From the NCBI RefSeq assembly GCF_024298765.1, contig NZ_CP101210.1: 64,000 nt of DNA; one strand, 5' to 3'. The notes under the pieces were generated by a model. That model made no database searches. It was given only the letters and a program-made list of their open reading frames with translations, and was not told where the DNA came from. A program made the position numbers and the translations under genes. Below are positions 44,910 through 49,174 of this stretch, one piece after another. This DNA comes from Escherichia coli. GTDB lineage: Bacteria > Pseudomonadota > Gammaproteobacteria > Enterobacterales > Enterobacteriaceae. The first letter of the stretch is position 1. Every line of letters starts with the position of its first letter.

Positions 44910-45289
44910 TATTCAATGTTTAATTTATTATTGATTCACATTATAAATACATATTTGTTTGCATCAAATTTTTTTTGCCCTCAATCAAAAAACCATTAAA
45001 TGAAATTTAAAACCAATAAAACCAATAATACTAGAGATTACATCTAAAAAATTACTTCTCTGTAGGGTTTTTATCTAAAAAAAGTGAAATCTCAAAACAA
45101 AAAATTATTTATAAAATAAAACAAATGGGCATTTTTTTGGTAAAAATCAATTTTTATATGCAGATAATATCTATATTATAGATATTATTGTTATCCATCA
45201 TGTAGCGACCAAGGCGGTAGTGATTAAAGGGGGGGTGGATATAAAAATTTATTGTACGTGGACTGCACCCCAAAACTTGGAGACCCAAC

Positions 45290-45650
45290 TGATTAATGTG
45301 CAATTTTTATGGCAAAGCCAAAATATTCTCTCGAAACCAGATTGGTTGTAGTTAATCATTATCTTTCCAGACACGATGGCGCACGTCGTATCGCTAAACG
45401 TTTTGGTGTTGAAAAAACATCTGCTGGGTAAGGTAAGAGACTGGTAACTCCACGATATTGATCGTATCACATGGAAAAATGACCTCCACACTCCTGAGTT
45501 TCGACTGACGGTTGTCCTGAAGTCTCTGAGTGAAGAACTTACCACGCGCGAGGCCGCTGCACGGTTTAATATCTCAAATGAATCCGTTATCCGGCACTGG
45601 GTGAAGAAGGTCTTCTGAACATAAAACCAGGCCGGAGCAAAGACATGACA
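45290..45650 (+). pseudogene. IS3-family transposase orfA remnant
   Basis: Short frames MAKPKYSLETRLVVVNHYLSRHDGARRIAKRFGVEKTSAG and ...EELTTREAAARFNISNESVIRHWVKKV resemble IS3-family OrfA HTH proteins, interrupted by stops and frameshifts. Confidence 0.5.
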
Positions 45651-45724
45651 AAATCTCAAAAAACACCTCCACTTACTGATGCAGAACTGGAAAAGTGGCT
45701 CTTCTGCAACCTGGGTGGAGATTC

Positions 45725-46849
45725 TCATGCCAGTGGACTCATTACCCTCTGTTTGAGTAGTTCAAATCCGGCTCGACCATACATCTGGCGTTTCAACATC
45801 TTCAGGCGATTTACATGACCTTCGACAACACCATTACTCCAGCGACTGCTGATTGCCTCACATATAGCCGCAGCATCAGCTTCCATCCCCGCAGCCACGC
45901 ACCGAAGTTCTGCTGAGCCGCTTTCGTGGACTCGAGTGAACAAGCTGCTTAGCTGTGATTTATTTTGGGTTTTCAGAATACGGTAGAACTCGAGTACCAG
46001 TTGCTGCGCTATTTTCAGCTCCGGTTCTTTTTCACACATCAGACTAATAAATCGGGAAGCATAATTTTCTTCACCCCTGATTATTAACCAGTGGCTTACC
46101 CGGGACACTGAAGGAAGTCTGAAGGAAGTCTGACGGCAGTAGTAACCGGTGGGATCCAGCCTTTACGCGATTTGGCAACAGCATCCCTGACGATGGTTTC
46201 ACTGCCTGTACCCCCCTGGCCACCATTTCCCGCCATATCCTGCTGGCGTTATAATTACCACTTTCTCGTTGCTCTTTTAACCACTCCCTCCATGGGTCCA
46301 GAAGCCCTCGCTTTGGAGGCCGGGTTGACATTTCAGGGAATGTTCCTGAACGCCCCCTGCGACTGACTGTCACACGCGACAGGCCTGTAATACGGGATAT
46401 TTCCCTGAAACTACATCCCTTGTTATGCAGGGCCATAACCTCTGTCCAAAGCTGATGCCGTTTTTTGCGGGTTTGCTGTTTAAGGCGTTCCGGACGACGG
46501 AGCGATACTGCAGGCACAGATGGTTTTGCCCGGGTTATTCCTTTGGTGACAACTAACTGGTAACAAGACGTATCAGAGTCATATGTCTGTACATCATTCG
46601 TTCAGGCGCATCGCCAATATTGTTTAGCAGAAGCCATCGTTCAGCTACCTGTCTGGCCTGAGGTGCACCTTCACGTGCTGCTGTCGCATTGATTCCGCAG
46701 CGATCACGCGAGACAACCTGTATTTCCGGATATTTTCTGAACCAGGTCGCCAGCGTATGCTGATCGCGACCGTGCAACAGGACGAGGGGACGGTGAGTAT
46801 CAAGATTGACTATTAACATACCGCAGCAGTGGCCCCGATGCCACGCCAC
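45725..46849 (-). pseudogene. ISL3-family transposase, broken into three frames
   Basis: ORFs 46553-46849, 46071-46517 and 45725-46108 together resemble an ISL3-family transposase, including the C-terminal WSNGVVEGHVNRLKMLKRQMYGRAGFELLKQRV signature. Confidence 0.65.
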
Positions 46850-47611
46850 TCATCAATACCGACATGGGGCGAGCCTGACAGTTTCGTCTCCAGGGTATTA
46901 TAAGCCTGCGAAGAAGAGTATCTGCACTGCAACGGAGACCCACTGTCGTTGCTGCCCGTTTTCCAGCCTCACCTCCGGCTATTAATCCCATCTGACGCTG
47001 TAAATTTTGTAACGACTGTGAAGACTGCTGGTGTGAACTGGCTAAGGGAGCAAGCGACCCGGCAAAAATTTTACGTGAACAAGCCGGGTTACGGCAGTAC
47101 CAGTGGCGGACGGAAAATACAAGCCATAGCGTCTGGCCTGTGCAGGGTAGATGCTGTATCCGGCGCCGGGGACAACTATGAACAGAATCGCTACGCTTAA
47201 AGCATTCAGGACATTGCGCTGTTTTGCGTTTTCCGCGGAGATGGAGGGTTATACCGTCAGATCTAATAATTTGTCGACTGCATTACCATCCGCAAGGTAA
47301 CTGTAGAAGTGTCTTAAGAGAGTGCATTGCGTTGCCCATAACTGAAAACAGCTTAGATCCTTGTTCACCAGAAAGTTTCATCCATTTTCTTCCACCCAGG
47401 TTGCGGAAGAGCTACTTTTCATCCGTCGTTGACAAATAATGATGAGATAGTCACAGAGCAGCGTTTGGGAAGCGCACAATCACAATATTGTACGGTTGCA
47501 TTATCGCGGTAGAGTATACCTAGACTGGCCCCCTGAATCTCCAGACAACCAGTATCACTTATTTAAGTGATAGTCTTAATACTAGTTTTTAGACTAGTCA
47601 TTGGAGAGCAG

Positions 47612-47977
47612 ATGATTGATGTCTTAGGACCGGAGAAACGCAGACGGCGTACCACACAGGAAAAGATCGCAATTGTTCAGCAGAGCTTTGAACCGGGGAT
47701 GACGGTCTCCCTCGTTGCCCGGCAACATGGTGTAGCAGCCAGCCAGTTATTTCTCTGGCGTAAGCAATACCAGGAAGGAAGTCTTACTGCTGTCGCCGCC
47801 GGAGAACAGGTTGTTCCTGCCTCTGAACTTGCTGCCGCCATGAAGCAGATTAAAGAACTCCAGCGCCTGCTCGGCAAGAAAACGATGGAAAATGAACTCC
47901 TCAAAGAAGCCGTTGAATATGGACGGGCAAAAAAGTGGATAGCGCACGCGCCCTTATTGCCCGGGGATGGGGAGTAA
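47612..47977 (+). CDS. insC: IS2 OrfA (InsC)
   Basis: Translation from [26 protein letters not shown] matches IS2 InsC. Confidence 0.9.
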
Positions 47978-48840
47978 GCTTAGTCAGCCGTTGTCTCCGG
48001 GTGTCGCGTGCGCAGTTGCACGTCATTCTCAGACGAACCGATGACTGGATGGATGGCCGCCGCAGTCGTCACACTGATGATACGGATGTGCTTCTCCGTA
48101 TACACCATGTTATCGGAGAGCTGCCCACGTATGGTTATCGTCGGGTATGGGCGCTGCTTCGCAGACAAGCAGAACTTGATGGTATGCCTGCGATCAATGC
48201 CAAACGTGTTTACCGGATCATGCGCCAGAATGCGCTGTTGCTTGAGCGAAAACCTGCTGTACCGCCATCGAAACGGGCACATACAGGCAGAGTGGCCGTG
48301 AAAGAAAGCAATCAGCGATGGTGCTCTGACGGGTTCGAGTTCTGCTGTGATAACGGAGAGAGACTGCGTGTCACGTTCGCGCTGGACTGCTGTGATCGTG
48401 AGGCACTGCACTGGGCGGTCACTACCGGCGGCTTCAACAGTGAAACAGTACAGGACGTCATGCTGGGAGCGGTGGAACGCCGCTTCGGCAACGATCTTCC
48501 GTCGTCTCCAGTGGAGTGGCTGACGGATAATGGTTCATGCTACCGGGCTAATGAAACACGCCAGTTCGCCCGGATGTTGGGACTTGAACCGAAGAACACG
48601 GCGGTGCGGAGTCCGGAGAGTAACGGAATCGCAGAGAGCTTCGTGAAAACGATAAAGCGTGACTACATCAGTATCATGCCCAAACCAGACGGGTTAACGG
48701 CAGCAAAGAACCTTGCAGAGGCGTTCGAGCATTATAACGAATGGCATCCGCATAGTGCGCTGGGTTATCGCTCGCCACGGGAATATCTGCGGCAGCGGGC
48801 TTGTAATGGGTTAAGTGATAACAGATGTCTGGAAATATAG
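47935..48840 (+). CDS. insD: IS2 OrfB (InsD) transposase
   Basis: 301-aa translation matches IS2 InsD (DDE integrase fold). Overlaps insC in the -1 frame. Confidence 0.9.
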
Positions 48841-49174
48841 GGGCAAATCCACTTCTATAAATAATACTAATTAACCTTTATTATTTTTTAATGGTACATG
48901 AACTGTTTTTAGCTGTAACGATAAACAAATCGCCCAAAACGAAAAATACTGGTTATCATTGCTCAGAAAACTCGTACGAGTGGCAGCTTCCCCCCTGAGC
49001 AATGCTTCATTTTCGGTGGTTCTGTGTGATAGAGTTATGCTGACTACAGTGGCAGTAACACTACTTTCCACCACACGAGGATAAAACCAGTCAAAAAATC
49101 AATTATATGAATTAAAAGTATTTTTTATGAAATGTTATGCATATCAACCAGTATGATTAACAGAAAATTTCATC

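Follow-up and report, generated by a model that had tools for sequence, protein, structure and literature searches.

Introduction

Deletions bounded by insertion sequences (IS) in pathogenicity islands, and deletions produced by recombination between IS copies, are known features of Escherichia coli evolution. The locus described here, which lies in a stretch of 64,000 nucleotides of E. coli contig NZ_CP101210.1 (the window), shares with such island deletions a single IS copy at the joint, no target duplication, tens of kilobases lost and parallel events in relatives; it differs from them in nothing of kind, only its end points being strain-specific. The elements at the locus likewise have described counterparts: IS2A of strain K-12 (NC_000913.3, 381260-382590); ISEc38, of the ISL3 family, with copies in NZ_OZ501608.1 and NZ_CP028379.1; and an unnamed IS3-family element on a Citrobacter braakii plasmid (NZ_CP077406.1, 8827-10274), for which ISKpn1 is the nearest relative to carry a name. 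A literature search returned nothing specific to the IS2 junction reported below.

When these counterparts are set against the window, the IS history that emerges very probably has two layers: an old fusion of two remnants, and a recent IS2-mediated deletion of 49,993 bp that brought the tos locus next to an AlpA module. Without the loss of some 50 kb, the tos adhesin genes and the AlpA module would not be neighbours.

Identity of the three elements

The rightmost element is a complete IS2 of 1,331 bp on the plus strand (47521-48851), the single IS2 copy in the window. It has the same length, ends, InsC and InsD proteins and A6G site as K-12 IS2A, at 99.4% nucleotide identity, from which it is distinguished by 8 substitutions (four fall in non-coding sequence at the left end) and by the lack of a 5-bp duplication. 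Both terminal inverted repeats are present (start TAGACTGG..., end ...CAAATCCA), the left repeat as an exact match. The overlapping reading frames orfA (InsC, 121 aa; 47612-47977, plus strand) and orfB (InsD, 301 aa; 47935-48840, plus strand) encode proteins identical to those of K-12, which score 276 bits against the NCBIfam model 'IS2 repressor TnpA' (cut-off 229) and 728 bits against 'IS2 transposase TnpB' (cut-off 597) respectively; the A6G programmed -1 frameshift motif lies at 47929-47935, and orfB encodes a DDE transposase. Being intact, the element remains capable of transposing or of acting as a recombination substrate. A scan for an outward hybrid promoter across its right end found nothing above shuffled background.

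To the left of IS2, and separated from it by 86 bp of unannotated island DNA (47435-47520), lies an ISL3-family element on the minus strand (45697-47434), whose ends were set by alignment with three ISEc38 copies in different contexts. Nucleotide identity to chromosomal and plasmid copies of ISEc38 is 92-93% over ~1.75 kb, and the right end, the internal inverted repeat and the layout of the 539-aa transposase, including its central helix-turn-helix insert, are common to both. IS names used here follow RefSeq/PGAP labels and the identity to copies already annotated, and the PGAP label at this position reads 'ISL3 family' only; at ~7% divergence the element is, on nucleotide identity, best regarded as a relative of ISEc38 and not ISEc38 itself, hence 'ISEc38-like'. 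The right end survives whole (...GTTGACA at 47434), and the left end is without the outer 15-21 bp (TGTCACGAACAGTGC...) that are present in the three other copies. With the left tip missing, mobilisation is impossible even in trans.

The transposase gene of this element (45725-47339, minus strand) is a pseudogene. A tblastn search with the intact 539-aa ISEc38 transposase recovered six collinear segments running from 47339 to 45728 in frames -1, -3, -2, -1, -3 and -2, each 82-93% identical to the intact protein, with three in-frame stops among them. The preliminary description had reported an ISL3-family transposase broken into three frames, and the six pieces do indeed use all three. Nucleotide alignment places five frameshifting indels, near 46899, 46845, 46527 and 46209 and, as an insertion of 11 bp, at 46108, alongside a 12-bp in-frame deletion. 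The NCBIfam model transpos_ISL3 matches the pieces of the pseudogene, and RefSeq labels the identical sequence 'ISL3 family transposase, frameshifted'. An IS21-like helix-turn-helix match in the middle piece had raised the prospect of a chimeric gene; the segment is native, being found also in the intact ISEc38 transposase.

The leftmost element is an IS3-family remnant on the plus strand (45259-45696), which aligns to the 5' ~32%, or first third, of intact copies. Identity is 86% over 463 columns both to the intact 1,448-bp copy on the Citrobacter plasmid, with which it shares the left inverted repeat and the start of orfA, and to a second, full-length IS3-family relative. The alignment begins at the left end of these relatives and stops at 45696. 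That second relative is ~79% identical to ISKpn1, to which the remnant itself can be aligned directly only over its first 165 bp (45259-45423, 77.6%). The left inverted repeat is kept at 45259, where it reads TGGACTGCACC (TGGACTGCACCCCAAAACTTGGAG...), and matches in other genomes begin at 45258 or 45259. As is characteristic of the IS3 family, the terminal repeat of the remnant starts with TG, and the orfA behind it encodes a helix-turn-helix. Around 130 codons of orfA are left, broken relative to intact copies by small indels, a 22-bp deletion and stops; the first fragment (MAKPKYSLETRLVVVNHYLS...; 45309-45431, plus strand) aligns to the N-terminus of intact orfA and ends in a premature stop, and the fragments give weak profile matches to HTH_28, HTH_Tnp_1 and transpos_IS3. 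No reference match to orfB (the DDE transposase) or to the right terminal repeat was found past 45696, either in window positions 44418-49200 or in an undeleted relative. With the first third alone retained and orfA broken, in comparison with the C. braakii copy, the stretch reads as a remnant and no longer as an element. The orfA fragments of the preliminary description are therefore present as described, with an adjustment of their left limit, which had been set at 45250, 9 bp too far left of the correct start at 45259. None of the three features claimed in that description (the orfA fragments, the broken ISL3 transposase and the intact IS2) can be a chance match.

An old fusion of two remnants

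The two degraded elements abut at 45691-45696, inside a microhomology, AAAAGT, that is common to both parents. At this site intact IS3-family relatives read ...GAACTGGAAAAGT and continue with TATCTCC; intact ISEc38 copies read TGTCACGAACAGTGCAAAAGT followed by GGCTCTTCC; and the window reads GAACTGGAAAAGTGGCTCTTC. Such a pattern suggests that the remnants were fused by a single old deletion at the 6-bp microhomology and are not the product of insertions side by side. The deletion that joined the unnamed IS3-family element to the ISEc38-like element would have taken the 3' two-thirds of the former and the left tip of the latter, and the decay of the ISEc38-like transposase gene would have come after the fusion. 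An 8-bp target duplication is absent around the ISEc38-like element: there is no direct repeat about it, its left flank being the deletion fusion with the IS3 remnant.

The sequence at the fusion point also bears on the true ends of the ISEc38-like element. A 30-nt inverted repeat, 93% complementary, connects 45690-45719 with 47391-47420 and could be taken for the termini of a complete ISL3 element. It is rejected as such: the true right end lies at 47434, the left tip is gone, and in the left arm of the repeat the outermost 7 nt belong to IS3-family sequence.

That the IS3 remnant and the ISEc38-like element adjoin without any spacer is what might be expected if the fragments were parts of one composite or nested element. 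This is the least probable of the readings considered here, close to negligible, since the three parts match three unrelated families (an unnamed IS3-family element, an ISEc38-like ISL3-family element and IS2), flanking duplications are absent, and where the two remnants abut they are joined by a deletion that took away the left tip of the ISEc38-like one. Nor does any IS3-family sequence resume to the right of the ISEc38-like element, which also disposes of a nested insertion of that element into the IS3 element. The preliminary description had taken the fragments for independent remnants, and on this point it stands.

Comparison of the junction across strains shows that the remnants are stable and that IS2 alone is variable. 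The remnant block is at least 99% identical in ~171 of 5,426 complete genomes; it is an old, dead, stable and fixed part of the tos-bearing island. IS2, the only variable part of the three elements, is active-looking and strain-specific.

A probable 49,993-bp deletion with IS2 at its joint

Window positions 10296-47520 and 48851-64000 match strain 104 (NZ_CP029164.1) collinearly at 99.97-100%, the number of tosA repeats being the one further difference. In strain 104 the two matching blocks lie 49,993 bp apart, and IS2 sits exactly at the joint. The left deletion edge, marked in the window by the flanking pentamer ATACC (47516-47520), corresponds to strain 104 position 4617102, and the right edge, marked by CTTCT (48852-48856), to position 4667096; the missing interval is thus 4617103-4667095. 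In strain 104 this interval is annotated with pic, a hemagglutinin/contact-dependent-inhibition (CDI) locus, a PTS, fucose/ribose genes, oligogalacturonate genes and hha. In relatives, the 86 bp at 47435-47520 run on into ~1.4 kb of non-coding DNA upstream of pic.

As the preliminary description had noted, the intact IS2 has no 5-bp target duplication: its flanks, ATACC and CTTCT, differ. The duplication is absent because the element sits at a deletion joint, and differing flanks are what an IS-mediated deletion leaves behind. The missing duplication, far from incidental, bears on the history of this IS2 and not on its identity, and is the mark of a rearrangement already completed. Other IS2 copies in the same island follow the same division. 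Where a 5-bp duplication is present the flanks are contiguous (strain 9, GTTAT; GPEC1035, CCCGG; S115, CATGG), and copies that lack one sit at deletions, of 49,993 bp in the window, 60,693 bp in G12 and 59,509 bp in GPEC1031. All of the IS2 copies found (8/8) are in the plus orientation, an apparent bias that is an ascertainment artefact of a search joining same-strand pieces only.

The undeleted left junction is found at 99% identity or more in 173 genomes, and 684 genomes cover the undeleted right junction; neither IS2 junction of the window occurs in any of the 5,426 complete genomes or in any metagenome contig. Comparison of an insertion with a deletion is formally symmetrical, and to that extent, with nothing more specific in its favour, the window could carry the ancestral arrangement, with the 50 kb of strain 104 and others inserted later. 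These counts make such an order of events exceedingly unlikely, as do the borders of the 50 kb in strain 104, which are without IS2 or other mobile-element ends, and the precise placement of IS2, with mismatched flanks, at the joint in the window only.

The same uniqueness of the junction pair would be expected of an assembly artefact, in which a pair of IS2 copies on either side of the 50-kb segment, both with duplications of their own, were collapsed into one and the interval dropped; IS copies are a classic cause of collapses in short-read assemblies. Against this, the window is contiguous over 64 kb across several other repeats, including those of tosA, and a structure of this kind, with other end points, is seen in the complete-level assemblies of G12 and GPEC1031, a good biological precedent; an artefact is very unlikely.

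The G12 copy of IS2, which differs from that of the window by 1 nt, invites a closer comparison. The two strains do not share a left IS2 junction: local alignment places that of G12 52 bp to the left, and its right end is different. Two duplication-less IS2 junctions within 52 bp of each other, one of them exactly where 49,993 bp have been lost, bear out the recombination-prone junction proposed in the preliminary description. That the short stretch 47435-47520 might also attract IS2 insertions preferentially, or anchor one-ended IS2 deletions, with loss of pic and CDI recurring in avian-associated lineages, is more speculative and unlikely. The idea draws on the independence of the window and G12 junctions and on their spacing, for which the probability of chance proximity is ~7%, a rough estimate given neighbour ascertainment.

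Routes to the deletion

In the recent layer of this history, an IS2-mediated deletion would have removed the island interior and left one IS2 at the joint. The favoured route would be homologous recombination between a pair of IS2 copies in direct orientation, one at each breakpoint. Among relatives this island often carries simple IS2 insertions, making two-copy intermediates plausible. It is worth considering, however, that a single copy might suffice. Tandem dimers of the IS3-family type ((IS2)2, IS911, IS30) promote rearrangements of this sort. For neither route did the search turn up a progenitor carrying IS2 at one of the breakpoints. One IS2 inserted at one breakpoint could have undergone intramolecular transposition to a target 50 kb away, possibly via an IS2 dimer or an active IRR-IRL junction, giving an adjacent deletion that would look alike in the end, with a single IS2, two new junctions and no duplication. 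Such a route needs only one prior insertion, and would sit comfortably with three different deletions in related strains, each with ends that are unique on both sides. IS2, however, transposes by a copy-out/paste-in process through a circle, and adjacent deletions are much less typical of it than of IS1-type replicative elements; the one-copy route is offered as a tentative and less likely alternative. Recombination between two copies is judged the more likely route, taking somewhat over half of the probability given to a deletion, in the knowledge that the sequence cannot separate the routes.

Implications

The IS2 scar is a case of ordinary IS-driven genome reduction and belongs to known biology; its significance is mostly practical, touching on gene content, the reading of IS2 copies and annotation, and it raises no new mechanistic question. 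For annotation, the two dead remnants serve as a stable marker of island type, with IS2 as the only mobile part. Within this island a usable rule follows the presence of the target duplication: an IS2 with a duplication denotes a simple insertion, and one without it marks a deletion. As regards gene content, near-identical strains carry pic, the CDI/hemagglutinin system and several sugar-utilisation clusters, all of which this strain is without.

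The tos-AlpA junction

The stretch of insertion sequences under study lies in chromosomal DNA of E. coli, and the landmarks named in its preliminary description, a tos locus to the left and an AlpA module to the right, are correct. On the left are TolC/ABC/HlyD type I secretion genes, then a large repeat protein, with a PapB-family regulator (44607-44909; Pfam PapB) directly adjoining the IS stretch, a layout that we take to be the tos operon; to the right of IS2 are an ORF of 263 aa and unknown function (49175-49966) and an AlpA-family gene (50350-50556; Pfam Phage_AlpA). All the elements reported between them are present, namely an IS3-family remnant, an ISEc38-like pseudo-element and a canonical IS2, and they are independent of one another rather than parts of one composite element. 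The earlier view of a recombination-prone junction between modules is supported with refinements: the IS2 appears to be a scar left by a deletion of about 50 kb that is specific to this strain.

IS2 and the deletion

IS2 occupies 47521-48851 (1,331 bp); its left repeat is an exact match, and no second copy occurs in the window. Compared with K-12 IS2A there are 8 nucleotide differences, the InsC (121 aa) and InsD (301 aa) proteins being identical. The element has both terminal repeats and the A6G frameshift motif (at 47929), scores for IS2-specific NCBIfam models exceed their cut-offs, and it is intact. No outward-reading hybrid promoter was detected at its right end. As first described, it has no 5-bp target duplication, the flanks being ATACC (left) and CTTCT (right).

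The near-identical strain 104 (NZ_CP029164.1), whose island is undeleted, matches the window at 99.97% over 10296-47520 and at 100% over 48851-64000; apart from IS2 and the deletion, these blocks differ only in the length of the tosA repeats, by about 1 kb. Between them, strain 104 has a further 49,993 bp (record positions 4617103-4667095) carrying pic, a second PapB-family gene, copies of ISEc39 and ISEc22, a hemagglutinin-repeat/ShlB two-partner locus of contact-dependent-inhibition (CDI) type, a PTS system, fucP, rbsK and oligogalacturonate genes, YagK/YfjJ-type and zinc-ribbon genes, and hha. The intact IS2, with its mismatched flanks, sits exactly at the joint. Undeleted forms of the left junction occur at ≥99% identity in 173 genomes and those of the right are covered in 684, whilst neither of the window's IS2 junctions was found in any complete genome or metagenome contig searched, which argues that the window's lineage lost this DNA and that IS2 marks the joint. 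A minor and quite improbable rival is that two IS2 copies were collapsed during assembly.

Two routes could have led to this joint. In the first, directly oriented IS2 copies, one at each breakpoint, would have undergone homologous recombination; in the second, a single IS2 would have inserted and one of its ends would then have transposed intramolecularly, producing an adjacent deletion and possibly using an active IRR-IRL junction, as in IS3-family tandem dimers. The end product is the same either way and no progenitor insertion at either breakpoint occurs among the sampled genomes, so sequence cannot separate the routes and the choice is one that we infer. Given a deletion, we lean modestly towards homologous recombination between two IS2 copies, since IS2 demonstrably often enters this island by simple insertion.

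The block 10296-47520 is 1,004 bp longer in the window than in strain 104, and overlapping alignments in the tosA repeats (36820-39118) imply one additional repeat unit of about 1 kb in this adhesin gene. Upstream of tRNA-Thr(cgt) (10301-10376), positions 1-10295 have no counterpart in strain 104, which carries a vat/ISVsa5/IS1 island there; thrW-side island content thus differs. Within the deleted interval, the roughly 1.4 kb from the ISEc38-like element to pic (strain 104 stretch L004, 3104-4544) has no more than short ORFs and a single 'hypothetical' pseudogene; its left edge survives as window 47435-47520 (86 bp). Only 9 genomes match at ≥99% identity across 600 bp over the undeleted right breakpoint (strain 104 stretch L005, 23796-24095 lying just to its left), in contrast to 258 records for the 3 kb to the right; variation is therefore unusually high between hha and the 263-aa ORF, an intergenic stretch where modules may naturally meet. 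Further right, ARAGORN predicts a tRNA-Gly(gcc) at 59824-59898 (-), within an opposite-strand hypothetical protein gene (about 59585-60394; RefSeq, identical relatives); either the prediction is false or a tRNA-like sequence has gone unannotated.

Older remnants beside tos

The IS3-family orfA fragments and the ISL3-family transposase in three frames that had been noticed left of IS2 are both borne out. The former (45259-45696, +) aligns at 86% identity over 463 columns with IS3-family elements, among them a decayed chromosomal copy (L011) and, on a plasmid of Citrobacter braakii, an intact copy of 1,448 bp (L022). The left terminal repeat of these relatives (TGGACTGCACC...) is the exact start of the alignment, and matches in other genomes likewise start at 45258/45259. 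About the first 130 codons of orfA are retained, broken relative to intact copies by small indels, a 22-bp deletion and stops; the other 1 kb of the reference has no match in 44418-49200 or in the equivalent undeleted region of a relative. PGAP gives the element no specific name and its closest named relative, ISKpn1, is distant: full-length L011 is about 79% identical to it, and only the first 165 bp of the remnant align with it directly (78%).

The ISEc38-like element (about 45690-47434, -) shares 92-93% identity with many chromosomal 'ISL3 family' copies and with those that PGAP labels ISEc38. Its true ends, set by alignment to three copies in unrelated contexts, are TGTCA(C/A)... on the left and ...GTTGACA on the right, of which the window has the right, at 47434. 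The left boundary reads GAACTGGAAAAGT followed directly by GGCTCTTC; up to 45696 this is IS3-family orfA, because relatives run on as ...GGAAAAGTTATCTCC, and ISEc38-like sequence begins only past the shared hexamer AAAAGT, so that the outer 15-21 bp are absent. The join is a deletion fusion at 6-bp microhomology rather than a nested insertion, and no 8-bp duplication surrounds the element.

With an intact 539-aa ISEc38 transposase as query, tblastn returned six collinear segments (47339 to 45728; frames -1, -3, -2, -1, -3 and -2) that contain three in-frame stops. The DNA alignment contains four 1-bp deletions, a 12-bp in-frame deletion and an 11-bp tandem duplication, the last being GAAGGAAGTCT twice at 46110-46131 and one of five frameshifts. 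An IS21-like helix-turn-helix match in the central piece is native to ISEc38 transposases. The copy is immobile, because its transposase gene is dead and its tip missing. Of 5,426 complete genomes, about 171 have the whole block 45250-47520 at ≥99% identity, always chromosomal and always beside tos, which argues that both remnants are an old trait, fixed in islands of this type, rather than a site that still varies.

IS2 across the island

Relatives carry further IS2 copies in the same island. Three are simple insertions, with matching duplications and flanks contiguous in strain 104: GTTAT in strain 9, within pic; CCCGG in GPEC1035, at the window equivalent of 49902-49906, inside the 263-aa ORF; and CATGG in S115. 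Two resemble the window's, with mismatched flanks at deletions: TTTGG/ATTAG in G12, 60,693 bp apart in strain 104 (window equivalents 47468 to 59500), and CTGCC/CTGTT in GPEC1031, 59,509 bp apart, starting inside tosA and ending 637 bp left of the window's right breakpoint. These three cases argue that the island interior has been lost with IS2 at its borders at least three times independently, with different end points each time.

The right breakpoint of the G12 deletion lies between 59499 and 59500, and window 47469-47520 and 48852-59499 are gone from G12 too, and with them the AlpA module and a TonB-receptor/ABC iron-uptake cluster. Its left junction is 52 bp from that of the window, a proximity that might hint at local IS2 target preference, although a rough estimate that allows for how the neighbours were ascertained finds it compatible with chance. 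Within 3 kb right of the junction, IS2 is present in four other genomes (GPEC1035, the only one mapped, GPEC1209, GPEC1210 and CH4793), so IS2 has entered this stretch in several genomes. The uniform orientation of the copies is an artefact, as the search joins same-strand pieces only.

A deletion that leaves an IS2 scar is well-known IS biology; here it would have created the adjacency of tos and AlpA, at the cost of pic, the CDI locus and metabolic genes.
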